A stretch of DNA of 64,000 bases from Argopecten irradians (lineage: Eukaryota). Of this stretch, positions 19,773-64,000 are shown piece after piece; the first letter of the stretch is position 1, and each line of letters begins with the position of its first letter. A model generated the notes under the pieces. It saw only the letters and a program-made list of their open reading frames with translations. It had not been told where the DNA came from and did not search any database. The DNA is taken from NCBI RefSeq assembly GCF_041381155.1, contig NC_091134.1:61118902-61182901 (forward strand), in the 5' to 3' direction. The position numbers and the translations under genes were made by a program.

Positions 19773-19971
19773 AGTACCCATGTTATCTGCAATGACCCCG
19801 CTAAAGCAGATATTAGCTACAAATGTAAAATGGCCCAGAAGTATGGCATTCCAGTTGTATCTGTCAACTTCTTGTATGACTGTGTGGAGAAAGGGAGACT
19901 ACTCAGTACCGATGACTACCTGGTTATCGGCAAAACAAAGTCTCAGAAACTCAAATCCGGTAGAATTGCAG
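19773..19971 (+). CDS. PARP4: PARP4 exon 2 (rest of the BRCT domain), ending in phase 1: STHVICNDPAKADISYKCKMAQKYGIPVVSVNFLYDCVEKGRLLSTDDYLVIGKTKSQKLKSGRIA.
   Basis: Acceptor tcctatag|AGT and donor CAG|gtaaat. It aligns to human THIILDNADVLSQYQLNSIQKNHVHIANPDFIWKSIREKRLLDVKNY. The overlapping ORF-track frame (19756..) is a different, non-homologous frame. Confidence 0.8.
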
Positions 19972-20134
19972 GTAAATAATCATTAATCATTGTTTTATTT
20001 TGATATTGCAAATTCATGATAACGTACCTTTTAAAATTGTGTTAAAAGTGGTTGTGTAATTAGCAACATCCCCCCCTCCTGCTTGCGCAATTTTCCATGT
20101 TAAGGTAAACTTGATTTGGATGATTTTTTTTTAG

Positions 20135-35697: not shown

Positions 35698-36968
35698 GTA
35701 TGTAGTAAACTGAATGTCTTGACTAAACTAATGGACTTGGTGGCCGAGGTATGTAGTAAACTGGATGTGTGTTGACTAAACTAATGGACTTGGTGGCCGA
35801 GGTATGTAGTAAACTGAATGTGTTGACTAAACTAATGGACTTGGTGGCCGAGGTATGTAGTAAACTGGATGTGTTGACTAACTAATGGACTTGGTGGCCG
35901 AGGTATGTAGTTAACTGGATGTGTTGACTAAACTAATGGACTTGGTGGCTGAGGTATGTAGTAAACTGGATGTGTTGACTAAACTAATGGACTTGGTGGC
36001 TGAGGTATGTAGTTAACTGAATGTGTTGACTAAACTAATGGACTTGGTGGCTGAGGTATGTAGTAAACTTTGTTTTGGCTAAACTAATGGACTTGGTGGC
36101 CGAGGTATGTAGTAAACTGAATGTGTTGACTAAACTAATGGACTTGGTGGCCGAGGTATGTAGTAAACTGAATGTGTTGACTAAACTAATGGACTTGGTG
36201 GCTGAGGTATGTAGTAAATTGGATGTGTTGACTAAACTAATGGACTTGGTGGCCGAGGTATGTAGTAAACTGAATGTGTTGGCTAAACTAATGGACTTGG
36301 TGGCCGAGGTATGTAGTAAACTGAATGTGTTGACTAAGCTAATGGACTTGGTGGCTGAGGTATGTAGTAAACTGGATGTGTTGACTAAACTAATGGACTT
36401 GGTGGCCGAGGTATGTAGTAAACTGAATGTGTTGGCTAAACTAATGGACTTGGTGGCTGAGGTATGTAGTAAACTTTGTTTTGGCTAAACTAATGGACTT
36501 TGTGGCTGAGGTATGTAGTAAACTGATTGTTTTGGCTAAACTAATGGACTTAGTGGCAGAGGTACGTAGTAAACTTTGTTTTGGCTAAACTAATGGACTT
36601 GGTGGCTGAGGTATGTAGTAAACTTTGTTTTGGCTAAACTAATGGACTTGGTGGCCGAGGTATGTAGTAAACTTTGTTTTGGCTAAACTAATGGACTTGG
36701 TGGCTGAGGTATGTAGTAAACTGTATGTGTTGGCTAAACTAATGGACTTGGTGGCTGAGGTATGTAGTAAACTGTATGTGTTGGCTAAACTAATGGACTT
36801 GGTGGCAGAGGTATGTAGTAAACTGGATGTGTTGACTAAACTAATGGACTTGGTAGCTGAGGTATGTAGTAAACTGAATGTGTTGACTAAACTAATGGAC
36901 TTGGTGGCTGAGGTATGTAGTAAACTGGATGTGTTGACTAAACTAATGGACTTGGTGGACGAGGTATG
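35674..36968 (+). repeat. 51-bp satellite, ~25 copies (aaactaatggacttggtggcYgaggtatgtagtaaactgRatgtgttgRct). It is derived from the 3' end of PARP4 exon 13 plus its GTATGT donor. The unit is 17 codons and fully open in the exon frame.
   Basis: The first copy is exon 13 itself. The ORF-track proteins are KLMDLVAEVCSKLNVLT reiterated. Each unit carries a GAG|gtatgt donor-like site. Confidence 0.9.
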
Positions 36969-36970
36969 TA

Positions 36971-39842: not shown

Positions 39843-40370
39843 TAGTAAACTGTATGTGTTGGCTAAACTAATGGACTTGGTGGCCGAGGTATGTAGTAAA
39901 CTGTATGTGTTGGCTAAACTAATGGACTTGGTGGAAGAGGTATGTAGTAAACTGAATGTGTTGACTAAACTAATGGACTTGGTGGCTGAGGTATGTAGTA
40001 AACTTTGTTTTGGCTAAACTAATGGACTTGGTGGCAGAGGTATGTAGTAAACTGGATGTGTTGACTAAACTAATGGACTTGGTGGCTGAGGTATGTAGTA
40101 AACTTTGTTTTGGCTAAACTAATGGACTTAGTGGCCGAGGTATGTAGTAAACTTTGTTTTGGCTAAACTAATGGACTTAGTGGCCGAGGTATGTAGTAAA
40201 CTTTGTTTTGGCTAAACTAATGGACTTGGTGGCTGAGGTATGTAGTAAACTTTGTTTTGGCTAAACTAATGGACTTGGTGTCTGAGGTATGTAGTAGGCT
40301 AAAATGTATTTGTTGACTAAACTAAGGACTTGATGGCCGAGGTACATAGTAAACTGGATGTGTTGGCAGA
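39843..40370 (+). repeat. Continuation of the 51-bp exon-derived satellite (~10 copies, degenerating at the 3' edge).
   Basis: Same unit and phase as 35674-36968, resuming exactly at the interrupted position. Confidence 0.9.
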
Positions 40371-40718
40371 AATCAATTGTCATGTTTTATTCACAATCAT
40401 TGGAATTTTACTTTTCATTGACATTAACTTTATATTGTCATTTACTGTAAATTTAACTTTTGATTTAATTAAGTGTGTCTATTTGCATATTTTTAAGTTT
40501 TTAGATTTTGAATATTTCTCAAATGTAATATATTAATCATGATAAAAGTACTTGTAAGTATAACATTGATGTAAAATAAAAATAGGTGATGATTTTGAAA
40601 GTTTAGTCTACTCGACATGAAGAAACTTTTGTTTTAATTAGGTTTAGATTACCATTATTTTTTAATGTTATCTATAATTGCTGAATTTCATTATTACTGT
40701 AAAAAACTTTCTTTTCAG

Positions 40719-40943
40719 GTGAAGGTATTTCAAGTTTACAAAAACAACAGTGCTGAAATGTTAGAAGGGAAGTATGTGTTCCCACTTGACGAGATGGCGG
40801 CTGTGTGTGGATTTGAGGCCTACATCAATGACAAGCATGTGGTTGGAGAAGTGAAGGAGAAAGAGACGGCGCACAAGGAGTACAAAAAGGCCATCAGTGA
40901 AGGTCATGGTGCCTACCTCATGGACCAGGACGAGGAGTCTCCG
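40719..40943 (+). CDS. PARP4: PARP4 exon 14 (VIT domain): VKVFQVYKNNSAEMLEGKYVFPLDEMAAVCGFEAYINDKHVVGEVKEKETAHKEYKKAISEGHGAYLMDQDEESP.
   Basis: Acceptor cttttcag|GTG and donor CCG|gtaggt. It is near-identical to human VIVFQTYTNKSHVPIEAKYIFPLDDKAAVCGFEAFINGKHIVGEIKEKEEAQQEYLEAVTQGHGAYLMSQDAP. Confidence 0.9.
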
Positions 40944-41019
40944 GTAGGTCCGGGGCTGGGAGTGTCTTTGTCTGTAATTATGGCTTCCATTCCATGGCTG
41001 ATAGGGAGGCCTATCTTAA

Positions 41020-42050
41020 AGTTTTTACATCAGCGTTATATCTGGTTGTAATCTGTATTTTACATCAGTGTTGTATCTGGTTGTAATCTGTATTTTACAT
41101 CAGCATTATATCTGGATGTAATCTGTATTTTACATCAGCGTTGTATCTGGTTGTAATCTTTATTTTACATCAGCATTATATCTGGATGTAATCTGTATTT
41201 TACATCAGCATTATATCTGGATAATGTAATTTGTATTTTACATCAGCGTTGTATCTGGTTGTAATCTGTATTTTACATCAGCATTATATCTGGATGTAAT
41301 CTGTATTTTACATCACTATTATATCTGGTTGTAATCTGTATTTTACATCAGCGTTGTATCTGGTTTTAATCTGTATTTTACATCAGCATTATATCTGGAT
41401 GTAATCTGTATTTTACATCAGCGTTGTATCTGGTTGTAATCTGTATTTTACATCAGCGTTGTATCTGGTTGTAATCTGTATTTTACATCAGCGTTGTATC
41501 TGGTTGTAATCTGTATTTTACATCAGCGTTGTACCTGGTTGTAATCTGTATTTTACATCAGCGTTGTATCTGGTTGTAATCTGTATTTTACATCACCGTT
41601 ATATATCTGGTTGTAATCTGTATTTTACATCAGCGTTGTATCTGGTTGTAATCTGTATTTTACATCACTGTTATATCTGGTTGTAATCTGTATTTTACAT
41701 CAGTGTTGTATCTGGTTGTAATCTGTATTTTACATCAGCGTTGTATCTGGTTGTAATCTGTATTTTACATCAGCGTTATATCTGGTTGTAATCTATATTT
41801 TACATCACTGTTATATCTGGTTATATCTGGTTGTAATCTGTATTTTACATCAGCGTTGTATCTGGTTGTAATCTGTATTTTACATCAGCGTTGTATCTGG
41901 TTGTAATCTGTATTTTACATCAGCGTTATATCTGGTTGTAATCTGTATTTTACATCAGCGTTGTATCTGGTTGTAATCTGTATTTTACATCACCGTTGTA
42001 TCTGGTTGTAATCTGTATTTTACATTAGCATTGTATCTGATTATAATCAG
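41020..42050 (+). repeat. 35-bp satellite (gtaatctgtattttacatcagcgttgtatctggtt), ~29 copies. It starts ~80 bp after the PARP4 exon 14 donor.
   Basis: Direct tandem repeat with R/Y point variants. Confidence 0.9.
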
Positions 42051-42665
42051 TATAACTCAAAACCTTATAATGATACTACACCTAATTTGATGTTTTAGTT
42101 TCTTTGAATTATCTTCAGTTTTAATGTAAACTTTACCACCAAAACTTCTTTCTCAATATTGCTTTTCAAGTCCAAAGTTTAAAGGTCAAGGTCACTGTTA
42201 CTAAAATAGAAAATCATGTTCTGTTTATTAACTGATTGGCAAGTTATTATATTTTTTTGTGGAATTCTTGTCCTTATACTATCTGTCTATACTGATGAAT
42301 GGTTCAATAGTTTCACTCTGAATTGAATTAATAATTTTTAAGTGCAACTAGCGCAGACACAGAAGTATTTTAGACATGAAAATCACTGTGGTATAATAAA
42401 TAATGGAATTTATCATATGCACATACATACAGTATCCATATTTGCAATATTCTTATTGATATTTTAGCGTGAGAATTCATGGATATATGTATTCAGCATC
42501 ATTTTTCAATAGCTAGCTTTTAACACTTTGTGGTGAAGCTACCTTGAGTTAGGCCATCTTTAGATGAGTGATTGCTCTATTGTGTATCATGGCCTTTGTA
42601 CATGACAGATAGGGAATCTCATCCGATTAATTTGTTTAACCTGAACTTTGTATGTTTGTGAACAG

Positions 42666-42818
42666 GATGTGTTTACAGTCACAGTGGGAAATGTCCCTGC
42701 CTATGCAACCGTTGTCATCAAAATCACCTATGTCACAGAATTACAAGTTGAAGGTGACCTTGTGAGCTTCCGTCTGCCAGGCACTTTAGCTCCATGGAAA
42801 CAAAACATTAAGGACTAT
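42666..42818 (+). CDS. PARP4: PARP4 exon 15 (VIT domain): DVFTVTVGNVPAYATVVIKITYVTELQVEGDLVSFRLPGTLAPWKQNIKDY. The donor is uncertain.
   Basis: Acceptor gtgaacag|GAT. It matches human DVFTVSVGNLPPKAKVLIKITYITELSILG...ATVAPWQQ. The only usable donor is TAT|gtaata, which is weak. The ORF runs on to a stop at ~42863 if unspliced. Confidence 0.7.
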
Positions 42819-43255
42819 GTAATAATTTATTATACTCAAACATGCAATTTAACAACAAATTAAACCCTCAAAGGAGAAAATCTTTCATTAAATATAATCT
42901 TAATTAAAAAATTGAAATAGATTTTTTGGAGCAAATTATGTTAATGTCTAACACATGTGGCCTTTTTTCATGAGACTTCATTGATTTGATTTGGACAGGT
43001 GCTTTTAGTATGTTTTACTTCAATATCTTGATCACCAGTCTCTGTAGATGTAGGTGTAACTCTCAGACTAGATCTTGGACCTTATAGGTAAACTAAGTTG
43101 AGCATGTTGAAGGATAGATATCAGCTCTCTCAGATTCTGGATGTGTATTTTTGATTTTGATACATTCTTCTTCATTTATGGATCTTAAATACTTGAATCA
43201 CATCATTTTAGCATGAAATGTAATTTATGAGATTGAGCTGTGTTTTCATTTGTAG

Positions 43256-43342
43256 GATATTGAATGTGTTATTGCTGTTGCTGTGGACATGCCCTTCGAC
43301 CTTAGAAATATCCAATGCCCCACTCACAAAATTGTGATAATG
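43256..43342 (+). CDS. PARP4: PARP4 exon 16: DIECVIAVAVDMPFDLRNIQCPTHKIVIM.
   Basis: Acceptor tttgtag|GAT and donor ATG|gtatgt. It aligns to human TMSIEMPYVIEFIFSDTHEL. Confidence 0.65.
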
Positions 43343-44002: not shown

Positions 44003-44913
44003 TAATATTTGGGAAATAGAGGTAAATCCTATAAATCCCTACTTGTCCTTGAGTTCTGTATGGATTGTAACCAAATTTGGCCACAAACATCCATGGGGGG
44101 AAAGGGAACAGAACTTGAATAAATTTTGGCTCTGATCCCCCGGGGGCAGGAGGGGCAGGACCCAATAGGGGAAATAGAGGTAAATCCTTTAAATTGCTAC
44201 TTGTCAAAGAATTCTACATGGATTGTAACTGAATTTGGCCAGAAACATCCTTGAGGAAAGGGGAATAGAGTTTGTATAAATTTTGGCTCTGACCCCACAG
44301 GGGGCATGAGGGGCAGGGCCCAATTGTGGACATAGAGGTAAATCCTTTAAATTGCTACTTGTCATATAGTTCTACATGGATTGTAACCGAATTTGGCCAG
44401 AAACATCTTTGAGGAAAGGGGAATAGAGTTTGTATAAGTTTTGGCTCTGAACCACCAGGGGGCATGAGGGGCAGGGCCCAATTGGGGACATAGAGGTAAA
44501 TCCTTTAGATTATTACTTGTCATAGAGTTCTGCATGGATTGTAACCAAATTTGGCCAGAAGCATCCTTTGGGTAAGGGGGTTAGAGCTTGTATAAATTTT
44601 GGCTCTGACCCCGGGGGCAGGAAGGGCGGGGCCCAATAGAGGAAATAGAAGTTGGTTCTTTAAATCGCAACTAGTCATAGAGTTCTGCATGGATTGTTAC
44701 CAAATTTGACCAGAAACATCTTTGGGGGAAGGGGATTAGAGTTTGTATAAATTTTGGCTCTGATCCCTTTGGGGGAAGGATGTGTGGGGCTTGATAGGGA
44801 AAATAGAGGTAAATATTTAAATTCCTTTAGAAAAGAAACAATGAATCTGTATTAAGAACATAACTTGGCATTACAAACCAGATGAGTGATACAGGCCCTC
44901 TGGGTCTCTTGTT
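44003..44913 (+). mobile_element. Helentron-like element copy 5 (5'-truncated, no head): ~5 monomers of satellite family A plus the conserved tail ...GGCCCTCTGGGTCTCTTGTT, in PARP4 intron 16.
   Basis: Monomers and tail are homologous to 2429-3310 and 26041-28019. Confidence 0.5.
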
Positions 44914-45159: not shown

Positions 45160-45350
45160 ATTAGTATTTGCTAGTAGAAAATTAATGCCAATTAGTATTT
45201 ACAAGTAGAAAATTAATGCCAATTAGTATTTACAAGTAGAAAATTAATGCCAATTAGTATTTACAAGTAGAAAATTAATGCCAATTAGTATTTACAAGTA
45301 GAAAATTAATGCCAATTAGTATTTACAAGTAGAAAATTAATGCCAAAAAG
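45160..45350. repeat. 31-bp minisatellite (tagaaaattaatgccaattagtatttacaag), ~6 copies.
   Basis: Direct tandem repeat. Confidence 0.9.
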
Positions 45351-45500
45351 GATAAACAACAAACTGCCTTCTTTTTCTTTGCTTTTGAAAATAGTGCACT
45401 GCACTTTCACAACAATTTAATCCCTAAGAATTTGATGGAATGGAGGCCAAATAGGCACAAACTAAACCTAGTGATCTCACTACATTTGGTTTTATTCCAG

Positions 45501-45638
45501 CCAAAAGGGTGTAAAGCTCTTGTGTTGACTGATGAAGAAGCCACCATGGCTGAAGGATTTCATCTCCTGTTTGAGTTAGCAGAGGTGCACATACCACGAA
45601 TGTGGATTGAACAGAGTGAGGAGGATCCGTCCAATCAG
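45501..45638 (+). CDS. PARP4: PARP4 exon 18: PKGCKALVLTDEEATMAEGFHLLFELAEVHIPRMWIEQSEEDPSNQ. The gene continues beyond the window.
   Basis: Acceptor ttattccag|CCA and donor CAG|gtgaga. IPRMWIEQ matches human LPRMWVEKHPEKESE. Confidence 0.75.
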
Positions 45639-45687
45639 GTGAGAGACGTATACAGCAATATTCTGTATGATGGTAATTGTATATTAC

Positions 45688-48600
45688 AGATGTATGACAT
45701 ACTGACTGACCAGTATATAGATGTTAGATGACCTTGTCAAGTATGACACACTGACTGGTCAGTATATAGATGTTATGTGACCTTGTAAAGTATGACATAC
45801 TGACTGACCAGTATATAGATGTTAGATGACCTTGTAAAGTATGACATACTGACTGGCCAGTATATAGATGTTAGATGACCTTGTCAAGTATGACATACTG
45901 ACTGACCAGTATATAGATGTTAGATGACCTTGTCAAGTATGACATACTGACTGGCCAGTATATAGATGTTATGTGACCTTGTCAAGTATGACATACTGAC
46001 TGGTCAGTATATAGATGTTAGATGACCTTGTAAAGTATGACATACTGACTGGCCAGTATATAGATGTTAGATGACCTTGTCAAGTATGACATACTGACTG
46101 GCCAGTATATAGATGTTATGTGACCTTGTCAAGTATGACATACTGACTGACCAGTATATAGATGTTATGTGACCTTGTCAAGTATGACATACTGACTGGC
46201 CAGTATATAGATGTTATGTGACCTTGTCAAGTATGACATACTGACTGGCCAGTATATAGATGTTATGTGACCTTGTCAAGTATGACATACTGACTGGCCA
46301 GTATATAGATGTTATGTGACCTTGTCAAGTATGACATACTGACTGGCCAGTATATAGATGTTATGTGACCTTGTCAAGTATGACATACTGACTGGCCAGT
46401 ATATAGATGTTATGTGACCTTGTCAAGTATGACATACTGACTGGCCAGTATATAGATGTTATGTGACCTTGTCAAGTATGACATACTGACTGGCCAGTAT
46501 ATAGATGTTATGTGACCTTGTCAAGTATGACATACTGACTGGCCAGTATATAGATGTTATGTGACCTTGTCAAGTATTACATACTGACTGGCCAGTATAT
46601 AGATGTTATGTGACCTTGTCAAGTATGACATACTGACTGGCCAGTATATAGATGTTATGTGACCTTGTCAAGTATGACATACTGACTGGCCAGTATATAG
46701 ATGTTATGTGACCTTGTCAAGTATGACATACTGACTGGCCAGTATATAGATGTTATGTGACCTTGTCAAGTATGACATACTGACTGGCCAGTATATAGAT
46801 GTTATGTGACCTTGTCAAGTATGACATACTGACTGGCCAGTATATAGATGTTATGTGACCTTGTCATGTATGACATACTGACTGGCCAGTATATAGATGT
46901 TATGTGACCTTGTCAAGTATGACATACTGACTGGCCAGTATATAGATGTTATGTGACCTTGTCAAGTATGACATACTGACTGGCCAGTATATAGATGTTA
47001 TGTGACCTTGTCAAGTATGACATACTGACTGGCCAGTATATAGATGTTATGTGACCTTGTCATGTATGACATACTGACTGGCCAGTATATAGATGTTATG
47101 TGACCTTGTCAAGTATGACATACTGACTGGCCAGTATATAGATGTTATGTGACCTTGTCAAGTATGACATACTGACTGGCCAGTATATAGATGTTATGTG
47201 ACCTTGTCATGTATGACATACTGACTGGCCAGTATATAGATGTTATGTGACCTTGTCATGTATGACATACTGACTGGCCAGTATATAGATGTTATGTGAC
47301 CTTGTCAAGTATGACATACTGACTGGCCAGTATATAGATGTTATGTGACCTTGTCATGTATGACATACTGACTGGCCAGTATATAGATGTTATGTGACCT
47401 TGTCAAGTATGACATACTGACTGGCCAGTATATAGATGTTATGTGACCTTGTCAAGTATGACATACTGACTGGCCAGTATATAGATGTTATGTGACCTTG
47501 TCAAGTATTACATACTGACTGGCCAGTATATAGATGTTATGTGACCTTGTCAAGTATGACATACTGACTGGCCAGTATATAGATGTTATGTGACCTTGTC
47601 AAGTATGACATACTGACTGGCCAGTATATAGATGTTATGTGACCTTGTCATGTATGACATACTGACTGGCCAGTATATAGATGTTATGTGACCTTGTCAA
47701 GTATGACATACTGACTGGCCAGTATATAGATGTTATGTGACCTTGTCAAGTATGACATACTGACTGGCCAGTATATAGATGTTATGTGACCTTGTCAAGT
47801 ATGACATACTGACTGGCCAGTATATAGATGTTATGTGACCTTGTCAAGTATGACATACTGACTGGCCAGTATATAGATGTTATGTGACCTTGTCAAGTAT
47901 GACATACTGACTGGCCAGTATATAGATGTTATGTGACCTTGTCAAGTATGACATACTGACTGGCCAGTATATAGATGTTATGTGACCTTGTCATGTATGA
48001 CATACTGACTGGCCAGTATATAGATGTTATGTGACCTTGTCATGTATGACACACTGACTGGCCAGTATATAGATGTTATGTGACCTTGTCATGTATGACA
48101 TACTGACTGGCCAGTATATAGATGTTATGTGACCTTGTCATGTATGACATACTGACTGGCCAGTATATAGATGTTATGTGACCTTGTCAAGTATGACATA
48201 CTGACTGGCCAGTATATAGATGTTATGTGACCTTGTCATGTATGACACACTGACTGGCCAGTATATAGATGTTATGTGACCTTGTCAAGTATGACATACT
48301 GACTGGCCAGTATATAGATGTTATGTGACCTTGTCATGTATGACATACTGACTGGCCAGTATATAGATGTTATGTGACCTTGTCAAGTATTACATACTGA
48401 CTGGCCAGTATATAGATGTTATGTGACCTTGTCAAGTATGACATACTGACTGGCCAGTATATAGATGTTATGTGACCTTGTCAAGTATGACATACTGACT
48501 GGCCAGTATATAGATGTTATGTGACCTTGTCAAGTATGACATACTGACTGGCCAGTATATAGATGTTATGTGACCTTGTCAAGTATGACATACTGACTGA

Positions 48601-51600
48601 CCAGTATATAGATGTTATGTGACCTTGTCATGTATGACATACTGACTGGCCAGTATATAGATGTTATGTGACCTTGTCATGTATGACATACTGACTGGCC
48701 AGTATATAGATGTTATGTGACCTTGTCATGTATTACATACTGACTGGCCAGTATATAGATGTTATGTGACCTTGTCATGTATGATATACTGACTTGCCAG
48801 TATATAGATGTTATGTGACCTTGTAAAGTATGACATACTGACTGGCCAGTATATATAGATGTTATGTGACCTTGTCAAGTATGACATACTGACTGGCCAG
48901 TATATAGATGTTATGTGACCTTGTCAAGTATGACATACTGACTGGCCAGTATATAGATGTTATGTGACCTTGTCAAGTATGACATACTGACTGGCCAGTA
49001 TATAGATGTTATGTGACCTTGTCATGTATGACATACTGACTGGCCAGTATATAGATGTTATGTGACCTTGTCAAGTATGACATACTGACTGGCCAGTATA
49101 TAGATGTTATGTGACCTTGTCAAGTATGACATACTGACTGGCCAGTATATAGATGTTATGTGACCTTGTCAAGTATGACATACTGACTGGCCAGTATATA
49201 GATGTTATGTGACCTTGTCAAGTATGACATACTGACTGGCCAGTATATAGATGTTATGTGACCTTGTCATGTATGACATACTGACTGGCCAGTATATAGA
49301 TGTTATGTGACCTTGTCATGTATGACATACTGACTGGCCAGTATATAGATGTTATGTGACCTTGTCAAGTATGACATACTGACTGGCCAGTATATAGATG
49401 TTATGTGACCTTGTCAAGTATGACATACTGACTGGCCAGTATATAGATGTTATGTGACCTTGTCATGTATGACATACTGACTGGCCAGTATATAGATGTT
49501 ATGTGACCTTGTCAAGTATGACATACTGACTGGCCAGTATATAGATGTTATGTGACCTTGTCAAGTATGACATACTGACTGGCCAGTATATAGATGTTAT
49601 GTGACCTTGTCAATGTATGACATACTGACTGGCCAGTATATAGATGTTATGTGACCTTGTCATGTATGACATACTGACTTGCCAGTATATAGATGTTATG
49701 TGACCTTGTAAAGTATGACATACTGACTTGCCAGTATATAGATGTTATGTGACCTTGTCATGTATGACATACTGACTGGCCAGTATATAGATGTTATGTG
49801 ACCTTGTCATGTATGACATACTGACTGGCCAGTATATAGATGTTATGTGACCTTGTCAAGTATGACATACTGACTGGCCAGTATATAGATGTTATGTGAC
49901 CTTGTCAAGTATGATATACTGACTGGCCAGTATATAGATGTTATGTGACCTTGTCAAGTATGACATACTGACTGGCCAGTATATAGATGTTATGTGACCT
50001 TGTCATGTATGACACACTGACTGGCCAGTATATAGATGTTATGTGACCTTGTCATGTATGACATACTGACTGGCCAGTATATAGATGTTATGTGACCTTG
50101 TCAAGTATGACATACTGACTGGTCAGTATATAGATGTTATGTGACCTTGTCATGTATGACATACTGACTGGTCAGTATATAGATGTTATGTGACCTTGTC
50201 ATGTATGACATACTGACTGGTCAGTATATAGATGTTATGTGATCCTTGTCATGTATGACACACTGACTGGTCAGTATATAGATGTTATGTGATCCTTGTC
50301 ATGTATGACATACTGACTGGTCAGTATATAGATGTTATGTGACCTTGTCATGTATGACATACTGACTGGTCAGTATATAGATGTTATGTGACCTTGTCAT
50401 GTATGACATACTGACTGGTCAGTATATAGATGTTATGTGACCTTGTCATGTATGACATACTGACTGGTCAGTATATAGATGTTATGTGACCTTGTCATGT
50501 ATGACATACTGACTGGTCAGTATATAGATGTTATGTGACCTTGTCATGTATGACACACTGACTGGTCAGTATATAGATGTTATGTGACCTTGTCATGTAT
50601 GACATACTGACTGGTCAGTATATAGATGTTATGTGACCTTGTCAAGTATGACATACTGACTGGTCCAGTATATAGATGTTATGTGATCCTTGTCATGTAT
50701 GACATACTGACTGGCCAGTATATAGATGTTATGTGACCTTGTCAAGTATGACATACTGACTGGCCAGTATATAGATGTTATGTGACCTTGTCAAGTATGA
50801 CATACTGACTGGCCAGTATATAGATGTTATGTGACCTTGTCATGTATGACATACTGACTGGCCAGTATATAGATGTTATGTGACCTTGTCATGTATGACA
50901 TACTGACTGGCCAGTATATAGATGTTATGTGACCTTGTCAAGTATGACATACTGACTGGCCAGTATATAGATGTTATGTGACCTTGTCATGTATGACATA
51001 CTGACTGGCCAGTATATAGATGTTATGTGACCTTGTCAAGTATGACATACTGACTGACCAGTATATAGATGTTATGTGACCTTGTCAAGTATTACATACT
51101 GACTGGCCAGTATATAGATGTTATGTGATCCTTGTCATGTATGACACACTGACTGGCCAGTATATAGATGTTATGTGACCTTGTCATGTATGACATACTG
51201 ACTGGCCAGTATATAGATGTTATGTGACCTTGTCATGTATGACATACTGACTGGTCAGTATATAGATGTTATGTGACCTTGTCATGTATGATATACTGAC
51301 TTGCCAGTATATAGATGTTATGTGACCTTGTCAAGTATGACATACTGACTGGTCAGTATATAGATGTTATGTGACCTTGTCATGTATGACATACTGACTG
51401 ACCAGTATATAGATGTTATGTGACCTTGTCAAGTATGACATACTGACTGGCCAGTATATAGATGTATGTGACCTTGTCAAGTATGACATACTGACTGGCC
51501 AGTATATAGATGTTATGTGACCTTGTCAAGTATGACATACTGACTGGCCAGTATATAGATGTTATGTGACCTTGTCAAGTATGACATACTGACTGGCCAG

Positions 51601-54600
51601 TATATAGATGTTACCTGTGTCCTTGTCATGTTATGTGACTTGTCAAGTATACATACTGACTGGCCAGTATATAGATGTTATGTGACCTTGTCAAGTATGA
51701 CATACTGACTGGCCAGTATATAGATGTTATGTGACCTTGTCAAGTATGACATACTGACTGGCCAGTATATAGATGTTATGTGACCTTGTCAAGTATGACA
51801 TACTGACTGGCCAGTATATAGATGTTATGTGACCTTGTCATGTATGACATACTGACTGGCCAGTATATAGATGTTATGTGACCTTGTCAAGTATGACATA
51901 CTGACTGGCCAGTATATAGATGTTATGTGACCTTGTCATGTATGACATACTGACTGGTCAGTATATAGATGTTATGTGACCTTGTCAAGTATGACATACT
52001 GACTGGCCAGTATATAGATGTTATGTGACCTTGTCAAGTATGACATACTGACTGGCCAGTATATAGATGTTATGTGATCCTTGTCATGTATGACACACTG
52101 ACTGGTCAGTATATAGATGTTATGTGACCTTGTCAAGTATGACATACTGACTGGTCAGTATATAGATGTTATGTGACCTTGTCATGTATGACACACTGAC
52201 TGGCCAGTATATAGATGTTATGTGACCTTGTCATGTATGATATACTGACTTGCCAGTATATAGATGTTATGTGACCTTGTCAAGTATGACATACTGACTG
52301 GCCAGTATATAGATGTTATGTGACCTTGTCATGTATGACATACTGACTGGCCAGTATATATAGATGTTATGTGACCTTGTCAAGTATGACATACTGACTG
52401 GCCAGTATATAGATGTTATGTGACCTTGTCATGTATGACATACTGACTGGCCAGTATATAGATGTTATGTGACCTTGTCAAGTATGACATACTGACTGGC
52501 CAGTATATAGATGTTATGTGACCTTGTCATGTATGACATACTGACTGGCCAGTATATAGATGTTATGTGACCTTGTCAAGTATGACATACTGACTGGCCA
52601 GTATATAGATGTTATGTGACCTTGTCATGTATGACATACTGACTGGCCAGTATATAGATGTTATGTGACCTTGTCATGTATGACATACTGACTGGTCAGT
52701 ATATAGATGTTATGTGACCTTGTCAAGTATGACATACTGACTGGCCAGTATATAGATGTTATGTGACCTTGTCAAGTATGACATACTGACTGGCCAGTAT
52801 ATAGATGTTATGTGACCTTGTCAAGTATGACATACTGACTGGCCAGTATATAGATGTTATGTGACCTTGTCAGTATGACATACTGACTGGCCAGTATATA
52901 GATGTTATGTGACCTTGTCAATGTATGACATACTGACTGGCCAGTATATAGATGTTATGTGACCTTGTCAAGTATGACATACTGACTGGCCAGTATATAG
53001 ATGTTATGTGACCTTGTCAAGTATGACATACTGACTGGCCAGTATATAGATGTTATGTGACCTTGTCAGTATGACATACTGACTGGCCAGTATATAGATG
53101 TTATGTGACCTTGTCAAGTATGACATACTGACTGGCCAGTATATAGATGTTATGTGACCTTGTCAAGTATGACATACTGACTGGCCAGTATATAGATGTT
53201 ATGTGACCTTGTCAAGTATGACATACTGACTGGCCAGTATATAGATGTTATGTGACCTTGTCAAGTATGACATACTGACTGGCCAGTATATAGATGTTAT
53301 GTGACCTTGTCAAGTATGACATACTGACTGGCCAGTATATAGATGTTATGTGACCTTGTCAAGTATACATACTGACTGGCCAGTATATAGATGTTATGTG
53401 ACCTTGTCAGTATGACAACTGACTGCCAGTATATAGATGTTATGTGACCTTGTCAAGTATGACATACTGACTGACCAGTATATAGATGTTATGTGACCTT
53501 GTCAAGTATTACATACTGACTGGCCAGTATATAGATGTTATGTGATCCTTGTCATGTATGACACACTGACTGGCCAGAATATAGATGTTATGTGACCTTG
53601 TCATGTATGACACACTGACTGGCCAGTATATAGATGTTATGTGATCCTTGTCATGTATGACACACTGACTGGCCAGTATATAGATGTTATGTGACCTTGT
53701 CATGTATGACACACTGACTGGCCAGTATATAGATGTTATGTGACCTTGTCATGTATGATATACTGACTTGCCAGTATATAGATGTTATGTGACCTTGTCA
53801 TGTATGACATACTGACTGGCCAGTATATAGATGTTATGTGACCTTGTCAAGTATGACATACTGACTGGTCAGTATATAGATGTTATGTGACCTTGTCAAG
53901 TATTACATACTGACTGGCCAGTATATAGATGTTATGTGATCCTTGTCATGTATGACATACTGACTGGTCAGTATATAGATGTTATGTGACCTTGTCAAGT
54001 ATGACATACTGACTGGCCAGTATATAGATGTTATGTGACCTTGTCATGTATGATATACTGACTTGCCAGTATATAGATGTTATGTGACCTTGTCAAGTAT
54101 GACATACTGACTGGTCAGTATATAGATGTTATGTGACCTTGTCATGTATGACATACTGACTGGTCAGTATATAGATGTTATGTGATCCTTGTCATGTATG
54201 ACACACTGACTGGTCAGTATATAGATGTTATGTGACCTTGTCATGTATGACATACTGACTGGTCAGTATATAGATGTTATGTGACCTTGTCATGTATGAC
54301 ATACTGACTGGTCAGTATATAGATGTTATGTGATCCTTGTCATGTATGACACACTGACTGGTCAGTATATAGATGTTATGTGACCTTGTCAAGTATTACA
54401 TACTGACTGGTCAGTATATAGATGTTATGTGACCTTGTCAAGTATGACATACTGACTGGCCAGTATATAGATGTTATGTGACCTTGTCAAGTATGACATA
54501 CTGACTGGCCAGTATATAGATGTTATGTGTGACCTTGTCAAGTATGACATACTGACTGGCCAGTATATAGATGTTATGTGACCTTGTCAAGTATGACATA

Positions 54601-57600
54601 CTGACTGGCCAGTATATAGATGTTATGTGACCTTGTCAATGTATGACATACTGACTGGCCAGTATATAGATGTTATGTGACCTTGTCAAGTATGACATAC
54701 TGACTGGCCAGTATATAGATGTTATGTGACCTTGTCATGTATGACATACTGACTGGCCAGTATATAGATGTTATGTGACCTTGTCAAGTATGACATACTG
54801 ACTGGCCAGTATATAGATGTTATGTGACCTTGTCAGTATGACATACTGACTGGCCAGTATATAGATGTTATGTGACCTTGTCATGTATGACACACTGACT
54901 TGCCAGTATATAGATGTTATGTGACCTTGTCAAGTATGACATACTGACTGGCCAGTATATAGATGTTATGTGACCTTGTCAAGTATGACATACTGACTGG
55001 CCAGTATATAGATGTTATGTGACCTTGTCAAGTATGACATACTGACTGGCCAGTATATAGATGTTATGTGACCTTGTCATGTATGACATACTGACTGGCC
55101 AGTATATAGATGTTATGTGACCTTGTCATGTATGACATACTGACTGGCCAGTATATAGATGTTATGTGACCTTGTCATGTATGACATACTGACTGGTCAG
55201 TATATAGATGTTATGTGATCCTTGTCATGTATGATATACTGACTTGCCAGTATATAGATGTTATGTGACCTTGTCAAGTATGACACACTGACTGGCCAGT
55301 ATATAGATGTTATGTGACCTTGTCATGTATGACATACTGACTGGCCAGTATATAGATGTTATGTGACCTTGTCATGTATGACATACTGACTGGCCAGTAT
55401 ATAGATGTTATGTGACCTTGTCAAGTATGACATACTGACTGGCCAGTATATAGATGTTATGTGACCTTGTCAAGTATGACATACTGACTGGCCAGTATAT
55501 AGATGTTATGTGACCTTGTCAAGTATGACATACTGACTGGCCAGTATATAGATGTTATGTGACCTTGTCATGTATGACATACTGACTGGCCAGTATATAG
55601 ATGTTATGTGACCTTGTCAAGTATGACATACTGACTGGCCAGTATATAGATGTTATGTGACCTTGTCATGTATGACATACTGACTGGCCAGTATATAGAT
55701 GTTATGTGACCTTGTCAATGTATGACATACTGACTGGTCAGTATATAGATGTTATGTGACCTTGTCATGTATGACATACTGACTGGCCAGTATATAGATG
55801 TTATGTGACCTTGTCATGTATGACATACTGACTGGCCAGTATATAGATGTTATGTGACCTTGTCAAGTATGACATACTGACTGGTCAGTATATAGATGTT
55901 ATGTGACCTTGTCAAGTATGACATACTGACTGGCCAGTATATAGATGTTATGTGACCTTGTCATGTATGACACACTGACTGGCCAGTATATAGATGTTAT
56001 GTGACCTTGTCATGTATGACATACTGACTGTCAGTATATAGATGTTATGTGACCTTGTCATGTATGACATACTGACTGGTCAGTATATAGATGTTATGTG
56101 ACCTTGTCATGTATGACATACTGACTGGCCAGTATATAGATGTTATGTGACCTTGTCATGTATGACATACTGACTGGTCAGTATATAGATGTTATGTGAC
56201 CTTGTCATGTATGACATACTGACTGGCCAGTATATAGATGTTATGTGACCTTGTCAAGTATGACATACTGACTGGCCAGTATATAGATGTTATGTGACCT
56301 TGTCATGTATGACATACTGACTGGCCAGTATATAGATGTTATGTGACCTTGTCATGTATGACATACTGACTGGCCAGTATATAGATGTTATGTGACCTTG
56401 TCAAGTATGACATACTGACTGGCCAGTATATATAGATGTTATGTGACCTTGTCATGTATGACATACTGACTGGTCAGTATATAGATGTTATGTGACCTTG
56501 TCAAGTATGACATACTGACTGGTCAGTATATAGATGTTATGTGACCTTGTCAAGTATGACATACTGACTGCCAGTATATAGATGTTATGTGACCTTGTCA
56601 TGTATGACATACTGACTGGCCAGTATATAGATGTTATGTGACCTTGTCATGTATGACATACTGACTGGCCAGTATATAGATGTTATGTGACCTTGTCATG
56701 TATGACATACTGACTGGCCAGTATATAGATGTTATGTGACCTTGTCAAGTATGACATACTGACTGGCCAGTATATAGATGTTATGTGACCTTGTCATGTA
56801 TGACATACTGACTGGTCAGTATATAGATGTTATGTGACCTTGTCATGTATGACATACTGACTGGCCAGTATATAGATGTTATGTGACCTTGTCAATGTAT
56901 GACATACTGACTGGCCAGTATATAGATGTTATGTGACCTTGTCATGTATGACATACTGACTGGCCAGTATATAGATGTTATGTGACCTTGTCATGTATGA
57001 TATACTGACTGGCCAGTATATAGATGTTATGTGACCTTGTCAAGTATGACATACTGACTGGCCAGTATATAGATGTTATGTGACCTTGTCATGTATGACA
57101 TACTGACTGGCCAGTATATAGATGTTATGTGACCTTGTCATGTATGACATACTGACTGGCCAGTATATAGATGTTATGTGACCTTGTCAAGTATGACATA
57201 CTGACTGGCCAGTATATAGATGTTATGTGACCTTGTCAAGTATGATATACTGACTGACTGCCAGTATATAGATGTTATGTGACCTTGTCATGTATGACAT
57301 ACTGACTGGCCAGTATATAGATGTTTATGTGACCTTGTAGTATGTATGATACTGACTGAAAACTGACTGGCCAGTATATAGATGTTATGTGACCTTGTCA
57401 TGTATGACATACTGACTGGCCAGTATATAGATGTTATGTGACCTTGTCAAGTATGACATACTGACTGGCCAGTATATAGATGTTATGTGACCTTGTCATG
57501 TATGACATACTGACTGGCCAGTATATAGATGTTATGTGACCTTGTCATGTATGACATACTGACTGGCCAGTATATAGATGTTATGTGACCTTGTCAAGTA

Positions 57601-60600
57601 TGACACACTGACTGGCCAGTATATAGATGTTATGTGACCTTGTCATGTATGACATACTGACTGGCCAGTATATAGATGTTATGTGACCTTGTCATGTATG
57701 ACACACTGAACTGGCCAGTATATAGATGTTATGTGACCTTGTCAAGTATGACATACTGAACTGGCCAGTAATATAGATGTTATGTGACCTTGTCATGTAT
57801 GACACATACTGACTGGCAGTATATAGATGTTATGTGACCTTGTCAAGTATGACATACTGACTGCCAGTTATATAGATGTTAATGTGACCTTGTATACCTA
57901 TGACATACTGAGACTGGCCAGTATATAGATGTTATGTGACCTTTGTCAAGTATGACATACTGACTGGTCAGTATATAGATGTTATGTGACCTTGTCATGT
58001 ATGACATTACTGACTGGCTCAGTATATAGATGTTATGTGACCTTGTCAAGTATGACTTATACTGACTGACCAGTATTATAGATGTTATGTGACCTTTGTC
58101 ATGTATGACATACTGACTGGCCAGTATATAGATGTTATGTGACCTACTGTCAGGTATACATACTGCCCACCTGGCCAGTATATAGATGTTTATGTGACCT
58201 TGTAGATGTTATGTGATGACATACTGACTGGCCAGTATATAGATGTTATGTGACCTTGTCATGTATGACATACTGACTTGGCCAGTATATAGATGTTATG
58301 TGACCTTGTGCAAGTATGACATACTGAGATGGCCAGTATATAGTATATGTTATGTATGACCTTGTCATAGTATGACATACCACTGATGTTATGGCCAGTA
58401 AATGTATCGATGTTATTGACCTTGTCATGTATGACATACTGACTGGCCAGTATATAATGTTATGTGACCTTGTCAGTTATGACATACTGAGCTGGCCAGT
58501 ATATAGATGTTATGTGAAAAACCTTGTCCAAGTATGACATACTGACTGGCCAGTATATAGATGTTATGTGGACCTTGTCCTGTATATGACATACTGACTC
58601 CCCAGTATATATGTTATGATGTTACCCCACACTGACTGGCCAGTATATAGATGTTATGTCATATATGACTTACCCCACTTCCCCAGTATAGATGTTATGT
58701 GACCTTGTCATGTAGGTGACACACTGACTGGCCAGTATATAGATGTTATGTGACCTTTCAAGTATTACATTACTGACTGGCCAGTAATATATGTTAATGT
58801 ACCTTGTCAAGTATTACATAGCTGAACAGGCCAGTGATGTTATGGACCTAGTCAATGTTACAAACACTCCCCAGTGTATAGATCGATGTGACCCAGTATG
58901 ACCACTGACCCCCAGTATATAGGTGTTATGTGACCTTGTCATGTATATAACACACTGACTGACCAGTATATATGATGTTATGTGATATTTTCCAGTATGA
59001 CCCTGACTCCCCCCTGTATATAGATGTTATGTGACTTCCCTTGTCCAGTATACTACATACTGACTTCCACTCCCCAGTATATAGATGTTATGTGACCTTG
59101 TCAAGTATGACATACTGACTCCCCAGTATATAGATGTTATGTGACCTCCCCAGTAGTATGAGATGGTTAACCCACTCCCCAGTATATAGATGTTATGTGA
59201 CCTCCCCATGTATGGGTGTTACCCACTCCCCAGTATATAGATGTTATGACCTTGTCAATGTATTACATACCGACTCCCCAGTATATAGATGTTATGTGAC
59301 CTTGTCCCCACTGACTTGGGCCAGTATATAGGTGTTGTGACCTTGTCCAAGTATAGGTGTTACCCCACTTGACTCCCCAGTATATAGGTGTTATGTACCT
59401 TGTCCTCAGTAACATACTGGTGTTTACCCAGTATATAGATGTATATGTGACCCTTGTACCCCAAGTATACATACTGACACACCCCAGGTATATAGATGTT
59501 ATGTGACCTTTTGTCATGTATGACATTCCTGACTCCCCCCAGTATATAGATGTTACCCCACCTCCCCAGTATGACATACTGACTGGTTATCCCCCAAGGG
59601 GTATATAGATGTTTATGTCCACTCCCCAGTATAGTATGACATACTCCCACTGGCCAGTATATAGATGTTATAGTGATCCTTGTCATGTATATGACACACC
59701 CCACTCCCCAGTATATAGATGTTATACCCCACTGTCCCAGTATATAGATGTTACTGACTCCCCAGTATATAGATGTTATGTGACCTTGTCAATGTATGAC
59801 ATACTGCTCTGCCTCCCTGTATAGATGTATATGTGTTACGCCACACTTGTCAGTATATAGAGGTGTTACTCCCCCACTCCCCAGTATATAGGTGTTATGT
59901 TACCCATGGTATAGACACTGACCCAGTATATAGATGTTATGTGAACACTTGTCATGTATATTGGTGTTACTGACTCCCCAGTATATAGGATGTTATGTGG
60001 ACCTTGTTCCAGTATATGTCGTTACCCTGACTCCCCAGTATATAGGTGTTATGTGACCTTGTTCAAGTATGTTACCCTGGACTGGCCAGTATATAGGTGT
60101 TATGTGACCTCCCCAAGTATAAGGTGTTGACCCCACTCCCCAGTAATATGTGCTGAACTTGTCATGTTATGACTTTTACCCCTGACTCCCCAGTATATAG
60201 ATGTTACCCCATGACCTTGTCCCTATATATGTTACCCCACTCCCCAGTATAGTAGTGTGTTACCCATGTATGACACTCCCCAGTATATATATGGTGTTAC
60301 CACTGACTGGCCCAGTATGATACAGTGTTACCCACCACTCCCCATGTATGATAGGTGACTGGCCACTCCCATAGTATCATAGGTATGTTACCATGACCAC
60401 TCCCCATACTGAATGGCATGTTAGTATGTTACTTGACCCAGTATATAGATGTTACCCCACTCCCCTGTAAATAGATGTTACCCCACTCGCCATATATAGA
60501 AAATACTCCACTCCCAGTATATAGATGTTTATGTCCCCCACTCCCCAGTATGACACCTGTGACTCCCCAGTATATATAGATGTTACCCCACCTTCCCAAG

Positions 60601-63600
60601 TATATATGTGTTTTACCTGTCTTGCCAGTAATATAGATGTTATGTTACCTTGTCATGTATGACCACTGACAGTATAAAGATGTTACCCCACTCCCCAGTA
60701 TATAGATGTTACCCCCACCTTTGTCAAGTATATAGGTAACATAATGACTTCCCAGTATATAGGTGTTACCTCACTCCCCTTGTAAAGTATGAGTTACTAA
60801 ACTCCCCAGTATATAGATGTTATGTGACCAACTCCCACAGTATGACACCCCACTCCCCAGTATATAGATGTTATGTGACCTTGTCATATATGACATAACA
60901 ACTGGACTGGCCAGTATATAGATGTTACCCCACCTATGTCATGTATATGACACACCTCACTCCCCAGTATATAGATGTTGAGTGACATGTCAGGGGATGA
61001 CATACTGTATAGGGTAGAGGAGAAAAGGTGTTATGTGACTTGGGAAGTAGGAGAGATGGACCCCACTGGACAGTATATAGATGTTATGAAGACCTGTCAA
61101 GTATGACATATTGACTGGCCAGTTATAGGATGTTTATTGTACCTAGTCAAGTATTGACATACCTTTCTCACTGGCCAGTATATAGATGTTATGTGACACT
61201 GTCCAGTATATAGGAGCATACCCTGACTGGCCCCCAGTATATAGTTGTGTGGTGACCTTGTCAATGTTTGACATACTAACTGGCCATTATATAGATGTTA
61301 CCCCACTCCCTTGTCATGTATGACATACCCACTACCCCTGTAAATAGTTAGTTATGTGACCCCAGTATGTATGACATACCACCTGCCACTAGATGTTCTG
61401 TGATATAGGTGATGTTACCCCACTACCCAGTATATAGGTGTAAACCACACCATGTCATTGTATGACATATCTGACTGGCCTAGTAAATAGATGTTATGTG
61501 GACCCTTGTCAAGTATGACATACTGACTGGCAGTATATAGATGTTATGTGACCTTGTCAAGTATATAGATACTACTGACTGGCCCATTATTAGATGTTAT
61601 GTGACCTTGTAAAGTATGGACACACTGAGTGACGCTATATAGGATTGTTACACTGACCTAGCCAGTAATATGGCCGTATGTTATGTGACTTGTCATGTAT
61701 GATACATACTGACTTGCCAGTATAATAGATGTTATGTGACCTTGTATAAGGTATAACATACTGAGCTGGTCAGTATATAGATGTTTATGTGAGACCTCCC
61801 TGTCAAGTATGTTACCACTGACTTGGCCAGTATATAGATGTTATGTGTACCTTGTCAAGTGATTACTACTTGACTGGTCAGTTAAATATATGTTATGTGA
61901 ACCTTGTCAAGTATAGACATACTGAACTGGCCAGTATATAGAATGTTATAGTGACGTTTGTCAAGTTACATACGAACTGACCCCTGTATATAGATGTTAT
62001 GTGACCTTGTCAAGTATTAAAATACTGACTGGCCAGTATATAGATGTTATGGTGACCTGTCAAGTATGACAATACTGACTGGCCAGTATATAGATGTTAC
62101 CCTGTGACCTTGTCCTGTATATTGATCTTACTGAACAGGCCTGTATATATGTATGTTACCTTGTGAAGTATGACACACTGCCTGACATAAATAGATGTTA
62201 TTTGACCTTGTCAAGTATGATATGTGACTGACATATATAGAAATGTTTATGTGTCCCTTGTCAAGTATGGGACATACTGACTGGCCAGTATAATAGATTA
62301 AGGTTAGCTTGTCAAGTATTACATACAGACAAGCCATATATAGATTGTTATGTGACCTTGTATATAGATGTTACCTGACTTGCCAGTATAATAGGTGGTA
62401 TGTGACCACTTGTAATGTATGACATACGACTGACATATAGAGTATGTGACCTTGTCAAGTATTACATACTGACTGGCCATATATATAGATGTTTATGTGA
62501 CCTTGTCAAAGTATTACATACTGACAGGCCAGTATTATAGATGTTTATGTGACCTTGTCTAATGTTATAACACACAGACTAGGCCAGTATATAGATTGTT
62601 ATTTGACCTTGTCAGTGGTATTGACATAGCTGACTGACCAGTTAATATAGATGTTATGTTGACCTTGTCCATGTATGAGCACAATGACTGGCCAGTAAAT
62701 AGATGTTATGTGACTCTTGTCATGTATGACATGTTACTGACTGGCCAGATTATATAGACCTTGTCATGTATGACACACTTGACTGGCCGGTAATATGGGG
62801 ATGTTATGTGCCCTTCCCATGTACATGTATGACACACTGATCCCCCAGTATTATAGATGTTATGTGACCTTGTCATGTATGGACATACCCGCACTTCCCA
62901 GTATATAGATTGTTAAGTGACCGGATGTCAGTGTATAGACATTACATGAAACTGTGGCCAGTATATAGATTGTTATGTGACCGAGGTCATGTATGAAACA
63001 ACACTGACTGGCCAGTATATAGATAGACGTATGTGGACCGTGTCAAGCTATGAACATACTATACTAGGCCAGTATATAGAATGTTATGAGACCTTTGGTA
63101 ATGTATGACATACTGACTGGCCAGTATATAGATGTTATGTGACCTTGACATGTATTGCATACTGATGGCAGAATATAGATGTTTTGTGACCATGTCCAAG
63201 TATGAAATACTGATGGCCTGTATAAGATGTTATGTGACCTTGTCATGTAAGACATACTAACTGGCCAGTAAAATAGAATTGTTATTTGAACTTGTCATGT
63301 ATGCCATACTGACTGGCCAGTATATATGTTGTTATGGTGACCTTGTCATGTATGACTTACACTTGACTGGCCAGAATATAGAAGTTATGTTACCAAGTCA
63401 CATGTATGATATACTGAACTGGCCAGTAATTATACGATGTTATGTGACCTTGTTAATGTATGACATACTGATGGCCAATATATAGGATGTTCAAGTGACG
63501 CTTGTCCAAGTATGACATACTGGACTGGTCAGTATTATAAGATTTGTATGTGATCTTGTCATGTATTATGACACACTGACTGGTCATTATATAGATGTAA

Positions 63601-64000
63601 TGTGACCTTGTCAAGTATGACACAGCTGACACTGACCCAGTATATAGATGTTATGTGACCTTGTAAAGTATAACACACTGAACTGGCCAGTATATAGATG
63701 TTATGTGACCTTGTCATGTAGGACATACTGTGTTGGTCAGGTATATATATAGTTTTATGTGACCTAGTCATGTATGACACACACTGACCTGGTCAGTTTA
63801 TAGAATGTTTATGTGACCTTGGTAAAAGTATGACACACTGGACTGACCAGTATATGAATGTTATGTGACCTTGTCAAGTGATGGACATAACTGAACTGGC
63901 CAGTTATATAGATGTTTATGTGACCCTGTGTCCACGTATGATCACAATGACTGGCCACTATATAGATGTTAAGTGACCTTGTCAGTGTATGACACACTGA
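45688..64000 (+). repeat. 49-bp satellite (cagtatatagatgttatgtgaccttgtcaagtatgacatactgactggc), ~370 copies across at least 18.3 kb, filling the PARP4 intron after exon 18 and running off the window. It is highly homogeneous to ~57.2 kb and increasingly degenerate from there to the end.
   Basis: Period 49 was verified at several points. Variant classes (caag/catg, ggcc/ggtc, gtgatcc) are locally clustered. Beyond ~58.6 kb ccccactcccc-type derived units dominate. The MSYMTRSHNIYIL ORFs are artefacts. Confidence 0.95.

Follow-up and report, generated by a model that had tools for sequence, protein, structure and literature searches.

The window analysed here is a stretch of 64,000 nucleotides from Argopecten irradians (NCBI RefSeq assembly GCF_041381155.1, contig NC_091134.1, positions 61,118,902 to 61,182,901 of the forward strand), and all positions given below are those of this stretch. 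It carries on the + strand exons of PARP4 (vault PARP) and, beyond one of them, a tandem array of a 49-bp unit that runs to the window end. An original prediction, made by a model that read the letters without database searches, had described the array as a satellite inside a PARP4 intron, with a homogenised core and a 3' flank decaying with age. Taken as a whole, the results presented here probably correspond to a recent, lineage-specific 49-bp satellite in a PARP4 intron, the 3' decay of which is mainly an assembly artefact. The features on which this is based, all on the + strand, are the following:

19773..19976, + strand: exon with the C-terminal part of the BRCT domain (Pfam PF00533, E = 4.3e-6, above the curated cut-off).
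~33094-33228, 33484-33600, 34340-34530 and 35061-35135, + strand: four exons of the PARP catalytic domain (Pfam PF00644, E = 9.5e-33 for the joined exons).
40677-40943, 42651-42815 and 43262-43336, + strand: VIT domain and following segment (Pfam PF08487, E = 3.5e-33).
45501..45638, + strand: exon of 46 codons adjoining the array (PKGCKALV...HIPRMWIEQSEEDPSNQ), with an acceptor AG at 45499-45500.
45639..45687, + strand: 5' intron stub, with the donor GTGAGA and 49 bp of unique intron before the first monomer, weakly similar to the monomer.
45688..46100, + strand: 5' edge of the array; its ~8 monomers share with their neighbours substitutions specific to the edge (TTAGATG, GACC, GTAAAG).
46101..57200, + strand: homogeneous core, with 1.7% substitutions and 28 insertion plus 10 deletion events in 11.1 kb.
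57201..58550, + strand: transition zone, with the monomers and polymorphisms of the core plus many private insertions.
58551..61450, + strand: C-rich block, in which monomer tails become CCCCAC(C)TCCCC and short units appear, over random noise.
61451..64000, + strand: distal canonical monomers of ~49 bp with ~15-17% private, insertion-biased differences, running off the window.

Comparison of the + strand open frames with Pfam gave the domains BRCT, PARP catalytic and VIT, in the order that identifies the gene as PARP4. The catalytic exons were also matched by PARP4 homologues in tblastn searches, and the motif residues H, Y and E can be read directly in LLFHAS, GIYFAS and DEYVVY. The VIT exons (40677..43336) showed 65-69% identity to a PARP4-like protein of Crassostrea gigas (P0014) by tblastn. 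When the joined PARP and VIT exons were used in a database search, the best matches were named PARP4 and came from birds, fish, a lizard and the bivalve Solemya velum, and the C. gigas PARP4-like protein was 77% identical over the VIT part, no match being close to 100%. The original prediction gave the exon before the array the number 18; some 15-17 exons supported by homology or by an open reading frame lie upstream of the array within the window. The one adjoining it (45501-45638) aligns to residues 244-289 of the C. gigas PARP4-like protein, 246-298 of sturgeon PARP4 and 186-219 of PARP4 from the tunicate Phallusia; its 46 residues gave no match as the sole protein query, and homologous proteins were obtained with the longer PARP and VIT query. 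The array starts directly 3' of a bona fide PARP4 exon. In the homologues the residues that follow this exon are ACMLxFYPEF, and then comes a vWA domain. The intronic location stated in the original prediction is thus backed on the 5' side, by Pfam and by the alignment to homologues, and on the 3' side the next exon and the vWA domain would fall beyond the window.

The orthologous intron could be compared in two other taxa. In Solemya velum (GCA_048127485.1, L002 28595-29361) the orthologous exon ends at the same place and is followed by an intron of ~0.4 kb; in a eukaryotic contig from an ENA metagenome (L001, 11240-11519) the exon end is again the same and the intron is shorter than 0.1 kb. 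The exon boundary before the vWA domain (...SQ|ACML...) is therefore conserved in the three sequences, and in both comparison taxa the vWA and the C-terminal MVP-interaction domain follow the orthologous exon. Neither of these two introns contains a tandem array. The intron position is thus conserved, and the array was gained in the lineage of A. irradians.

Tandem Repeats Finder (TRF) placed the 49-bp array between 45692 and the window end at 64000, with scores of 11056-13622, and wrap-around alignment of 45688-64000 to the 49-bp consensus monomer, GTATGACATACTGACTGGCCAGTATATAGATGTTATGTGACCTTGTCAA, gave 367 monomer-equivalents, the first of them 49-53 bp past the donor GTGAGA at 45639. An array of about 370 monomers and 18+ kb, beginning 50 bp past the exon donor, had been foreseen in the original prediction, and both statements hold for the sequence as assembled. 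The quality of the match changes along the array, from 97% matches and 0% indels at 45692-51628, through 90% matches at 51628-59806, to 71% matches, 14% indels and an apparent period of 52 at 61678-64000. One unit is repeated head-to-tail at high copy number, as in satellite DNA: the anchor CAGTATATAGATGTTA occurs 276 times, and 276/276 occurrences lie within the array. Comparison of an array dimer with the 45.7 kb upstream by BLAST gave matches of at most 12 nt, at chance level, and neither solitary monomers nor a progenitor sequence were found there or in the 49-bp intron stub. With chance-level matches only, an origin of the array from local exon or intron sequence is ruled out, unlike the case of the 51-bp array described below. 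A 23-nt stretch of the monomer had no match in a full-text literature search, and an exact 28-mer had 0 matches among the metagenome contigs scanned.

Between 45.7 and 57.2 kb the array is a genuine homogenised satellite-type tandem repeat, young and at least 11.5 kb long. The 236 monomers of this part comprise 45 sequence types, and 87 of them are identical to the consensus. Variant occurrences (n = 253) belong in 93% of cases to recurrent variants, the main ones being 49A>T (CAAG to CATG, 97 times), 19C>T (GGCC to GGTC, 37 times), 9T>C (GACACAC, 18 times) and a T insertion that gives GTGATCC (11 times). GGTC and CATG monomers are locally clustered (permutation p < 0.0002 and p = 0.002, respectively). 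Core copies that differ by a few recurring, clustered variants had been described before, with local conversion or unequal exchange as the suggested cause; the description is borne out and the cause fits the clustering. As for the gtgatcc block reported at 50.1-50.7 kb, a cluster does exist there, but it is formed mainly by GGTC+CATG monomers, with only 3 GTGATCC in the 50-kb bin. This local clustering is not accompanied by higher-order repeats: no lag stood out in the monomer-type string of the core, no informative repeat of at least 6 monomers was found among duplicated multi-monomer blocks in the core, and the TRF period multiples (106, 147, 158) had an identity no better than that of the monomer period. 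A single irregular monomer was observed in the clean core at 51612-51650 (gttacctgtgtccttgtcatgttatgtgacttgtcaagtatacatac), where 18 bases are inserted and small deletions occur; TRF breaks the array at this point. Either the structural variation is real or the consensus has a local fault here.

The 413 bp of the 5' edge serve as an example of how this array diverges naturally at an edge. There are 21 substitutions (5.1%) and 2 insertion events, the monomers are of types M and N, and the edge variants are concentrated at 45-46 kb. Divergence here is thus dominated by substitutions, with almost no indels, and variants are shared by neighbouring monomers.

The distal part, from 57.2 to 64 kb, had been interpreted in the original prediction as a textbook satellite-edge age gradient, in which indels and substitutions accumulate steadily. 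Neither part of this interpretation agrees with the error statistics. Insertions appear abruptly at ~57.2 kb, going from ~0.2% to 3-12% of aligned positions, and the error profile rises within ~1 kb, peaks at 60-60.5 kb and then falls to ~15-17% at 61.5-64 kb, instead of increasing monotonically towards an edge. The first sign of change, at 57.2-58.55 kb, consists of insertions (43 events versus 5 deletions, with a mean monomer of 51.6 bp) and not of extra substitutions, which stay at 2.2% as in the core. Indel events per substitution were 1.71 at 57.2-58.55 kb, 0.62 at 58.55-61.05 kb and 0.97 at 61.05-64 kb, and insertion events outnumbered deletion events by 8.6, 2.7 and 3.2 to 1 in the same three intervals (the events counted at 61050-64000 are 173 insertions, 55 deletions and 235 substitutions). 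In ten of the eleven other arrays of the window, which are 1-10% diverged, there are 0.02-0.33 indel events per substitution, so that indels are 3-50 times rarer relative to substitutions; the eleventh, a short array at 39835-40367, gave 0.62. Distal monomers are lengthened, to a mean of 50.4-52.5 bp (50.4-51.4 bp at 61050-64000).

The distal changes also look random. The transition fraction is 74/235 = 0.31, with a random expectation of 0.33 and values of ~0.5-0.73 (around 0.6) in the other arrays, and 12/12 types of substitution occur. Single-base insertions involve all four bases, 51-61% of them being equal to a neighbouring base (chance ~44%). At 61-64 kb there are ~7 private differences per monomer, distributed across all 49 monomer positions, and neighbours (0.30, 0.20, 0.24) have no more private variants in common than distant pairs have (0.24); no identical pair of distal monomers was found. 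Beneath these differences, the monomers at 61-64 kb retain the young core polymorphisms, with much the same frequencies (49A>T, 0.37 versus 0.43 in the core; 19C>T, 0.11 versus 0.15). When noise was simulated on a clean array, 7% insertion, 2.5% deletion and 6% substitution matched the figures for 61-64 kb, and 3% insertion, 0.5% deletion and 0.3% substitution matched those for 57.2-58.55 kb. A PacBio-like mix (8% insertion, 4% deletion, 1.5% substitution) was rejected, as it gave too few substitutions (4.6% versus 8.0% observed), and the platform cannot be named for this reason.

The C-rich block at 58.55-61.45 kb deserves separate treatment. Changes in it run towards C (G>C 103, T>C 57, A>C 26) and are position-specific (chi2 = 310, df 48), which rules out heavier random noise as its explanation. 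The head of the monomer, CCAGTATATAGATGTTA, has an error rate of 5-10%, and CCCCAC(C)TCCCC stands in place of the two tails found before CAGTAT or AAGTAT, with partial forms in which TGTG alone or TTGT alone has become CCCC; an example of the sequence is TTACCCCACTCCCCAGTATATAG. About 20 short units of 25-32 bp are present, CCCC occurs in the array solely at 58.5-62.8 kb, and GC skew is negative at 59-61 kb. A short subfamily had been predicted to dominate from ~58.6 kb onwards; short C-rich units are indeed present, but they are confined to this block, after which canonical units return. The block is either a real derived sub-array under noise or a systematic base-calling or consensus error. 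Systematic base-calling errors have been reported for other tandem repeats, for example in the nanopore miscalls of telomeres.

The apparent age gradient is most likely an artefact of assembly quality, and the distal sequence is best read as a low-coverage or unpolished long-read consensus. Reliable sequence would then be limited to the first ~11.5 kb (45.7-57.2 kb), the part from 57.2 to 64 kb being mainly artefact. The array would have expanded recently, in one intron of an intact PARP4 orthologue and in a single lineage, and its growth and uniformity could be due to unequal exchange, replication slippage and local conversion, in line with the clustered variants. It would be transcribed within the pre-mRNA and then spliced out, most likely having no function of its own. 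In the assembly, a good consensus would extend as far as reads anchored in the unique flank can reach, ~11.5 kb, which may correspond to the typical length of a noisy long read. Past ~57.2 kb the consensus would come from one or few error-prone long reads, impossible to polish, as a homogeneous array offers no unique placement for reads, and random, insertion-biased errors of ~15% would overlie the same young array. The insertion bias resembles that of PacBio continuous long reads, with typical raw-read substitution rates of 1-4%. Long tandem arrays are a recognised problem for long-read assembly and its evaluation, as described for TandemTools/TandemQUAST (PMC7355294). The low-quality consensus described there is similar to the present case in the drop in quality inside a long array, away from a unique anchor, and in the indel-rich private errors; the case differs in the C-rich block, which simple random error does not explain, and in that it is known here from the consensus sequence (PMC7355294).

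Several points weigh against this interpretation. We infer the artefact from error statistics alone, and the intronic status of the array is supported from the 5' side. The fitted substitution rate of ~6% exceeds the range just given for raw PacBio reads, and real divergence may account for part of it. Private, unshared mutations would likewise be expected in an old flank that escaped homogenisation, and natural 1-bp insertions also tend to duplicate the neighbouring base. Finally, random noise fails to explain the recurrent and position-specific C-rich block, which may be genuine and would then partly vindicate the original prediction.

The private differences, the structured and recurrent block and the high substitution rate are also what speaks for the first alternative, the view of the original prediction, namely that the distal 6.8 kb are genuinely older, unhomogenised and mutating, with a derived C-rich 26-bp subfamily and a true gradient of age from core to edge. 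We consider this unlikely. Animal genomes are generally deletion-biased; here insertions are 3-9 times more frequent than deletions and the monomers lengthen. Indels about as frequent as substitutions, a transition fraction at its random value, an onset by insertions, unchanged core polymorphisms and a divergence that is not monotonic all argue against it as well, as does the quite different appearance of the genuine 5' edge. It is doubtful that the distal 6.8 kb are real as they stand and that this PARP4 intron displays a complete satellite life history, with a core that is young and homogenised, a flank that is old and full of indels, and a derivative in the form of a C-rich 26-bp sub-array. 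Were this so, an unusual insertion-biased mutational process inside the array would be implied, and the antisense strand of the C-rich sub-array (GGGGAGTGGGG) could form G-quadruplexes.

A second alternative is that the distal part results from a chimeric join or gap-fill, with a raw read or contig taken from an array of the same family elsewhere in the genome. The length of 18 kb would then be wrong, and the array need not be continuous with the remainder of the gene. The abrupt change in quality at ~57.2 kb and the end of the window within the array, away from any distal anchor, would be compatible with such a join, and long arrays are known problem regions in long-read assembly (PMC7355294). 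We nevertheless regard it as quite improbable, given that the same polymorphisms continue across 57.2 kb at the same frequencies, as expected for one array, that no breakpoint or foreign sequence was seen, and that the 45.7 kb upstream contain no further copy of the family.

Some properties of the monomer could be taken to indicate a function. It has dyad symmetry, and a 147-nt stretch of three monomers folds better than 200/200 shuffles, with z-scores (-4.3 to -5.4) that are inflated, as shuffling destroys the repeat. The symmetry in the folding runs rests on short stems, RNA folds also use G-U pairs, and an inverted-repeat scan of one monomer pair with a 6-nt seed found nothing. On direct reading, each monomer has a CAA|GTATGA site and a CTGAC...TATATAG site. 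Neither the folding z-scores nor the CAA|GTATGA sites are evidence of function. A function of the array as a satellite of centromeres or heterochromatin, or as an intronic regulator that works by way of its dyad symmetry, of ~370 weak GTATGA donor-like sites or of a long hairpin RNA, is very hard to reconcile with an orthologous intron that is short and array-free in two other taxa, with gene-dense surroundings full of unrelated arrays, and with oyster work that reports little heterochromatin and no centromere-specific satellite (PMC8268682).

The preferred reading, a young satellite with an artefactual distal part, is also consistent with the genomic context. Almost every PARP4 intron was observed to have a different tandem repeat, and TRF detected at least 8 unrelated families of tandem arrays in the other, upstream introns. 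Tandem repeats of at least 150 bp make up 30% of the 45.7-kb region upstream; for the PARP4 span ahead of the array the figure is 44%. Examples are:

41023-42053: T-rich 35-bp unit, 29 copies, starting ~80 bp past the first VIT exon.
45160-45346: 31-bp unit, 6 copies with 98% identity, 155 bp before the exon adjoining the 49-bp array.
2391-3211, 20688-25896, 26043-27856 and 44011-44823, and also 8248-9167: (CGTC)n followed by 157-bp or 145-bp repeats.

The last of these have a known counterpart. In the Helentron-derived Cg_HINE elements of the Pacific oyster, the left flank ends in GTCC-type microsatellites and satellite-like arrays reach a maximum of 29 monomers (PMC7492417). The (CGTC)n of the window is (GTCC)n in another register and stands before the 157-/145-bp repeats, which is the same layout, is in keeping with a bivalve genome and explains much of the repeat load of the window. 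The 49-bp array departs from this pattern, as it has no 5' microsatellite (45639-45687) and more than 236 monomers versus the maximum of 29 (PMC7492417), and does not appear to be borne by a Helentron or HINE. Satellite DNAs of C. gigas are scattered genome-wide, mostly as short arrays, the longest having 232 monomers and ~40 kb (CgiSat01 standalone arrays), in a genome that is poor in heterochromatin and has no known centromere-specific satellite (PMC8268682). The organisation found here is similar, with arrays among genes, many unrelated families within tens of kb, and arrays of a few hundred monomers outside classical heterochromatin; it differs in the monomer, of 49 bp versus ~160-170 bp (PMC8268682), and no sequence match was found in the literature. 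With at least 236 monomers, the 49-bp array is long for this type of genome. Together, the repeat load and the oyster-like organisation make the window look like ordinary bivalve-type euchromatin. The heterochromatin-like or centromeric setting previously proposed is thus not upheld, much of the gene span upstream being already made up of tandem arrays that are scattered as in oysters (PMC8268682, PMC7492417). The array is located in a gene whose exons are intact, with further genes and arrays beside it. The 49-bp array is the largest of many intronic arrays and an ordinary species-specific satellite.

Satellites within introns of protein-coding genes, through which the polymerase must read, have reportedly been described before: the Drosophila Y-linked fertility genes kl-3 and kl-5 are said to have giant introns that contain satellites, and satellites are also said to be present in the HSP70 introns of Mytilus. 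The A. irradians array resembles these cases in its position. It differs from kl-3 and kl-5 in its extent, at least 18 kb and not megabases, in its host, PARP4 being an ordinary autosomal-type gene, and in being known from sequence data.

Other observations concern the remaining arrays and the region upstream of PARP4. A 51-bp array occupies 35656-36970 (26 copies), with ~10 more copies 3 kb downstream, at 39835-40367. Its unit is formed by the last 42 nt of the PARP4 exon at 35557-35687 and the first 9 nt of the intron that follows (...AAACTAATGGACTTGGTGGCTGAG joined to GTATGTAGT), and since it spans the exon-intron junction every copy has a copy of the 5' splice site. The unit corresponds to 17 codons, and frames of 149 and 130 aa are open through the repeats (KLMDLVAEVCSKLNVLT...). 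If a downstream donor copy were used, in-frame repeats of 17 aa would be inserted just before the VIT domain, and this array may be biologically more interesting than the 49-bp array. Degenerate (TAACGAT)n-like repeats at 37035-37127 and 39662-39813 bracket the 2.7-kb segment between the two blocks of the 51-bp array, which would be compatible with the insertion of an element into what was once one array. Upstream of PARP4, open frames on the + strand at 1906-2088, 3759-3911 and 4243-4395 (e.g. AIQKGNLEGARIHAENSIRQKNQALNYRRMSARIDAVAARVQTAVTMKQV) presumably resemble CHMP1-type ESCRT-III proteins; one of these exons, run against Pfam, had no match at E <= 0.01.

In practical terms, these results are a warning that the attractive age gradient of this array is probably a sequencing artefact, and that the array length, the distal sequence and the C-rich "subfamily" are unsafe for evolutionary inference or annotation until they are checked against reads. 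For the biology of the organism, the array represents one more species-specific satellite in a type of genome known to scatter arrays through its genes, and carries little biological weight. If the distal part were real, its insertion-biased decay and its C-rich derivative would be moderately interesting for the evolution of satellites.

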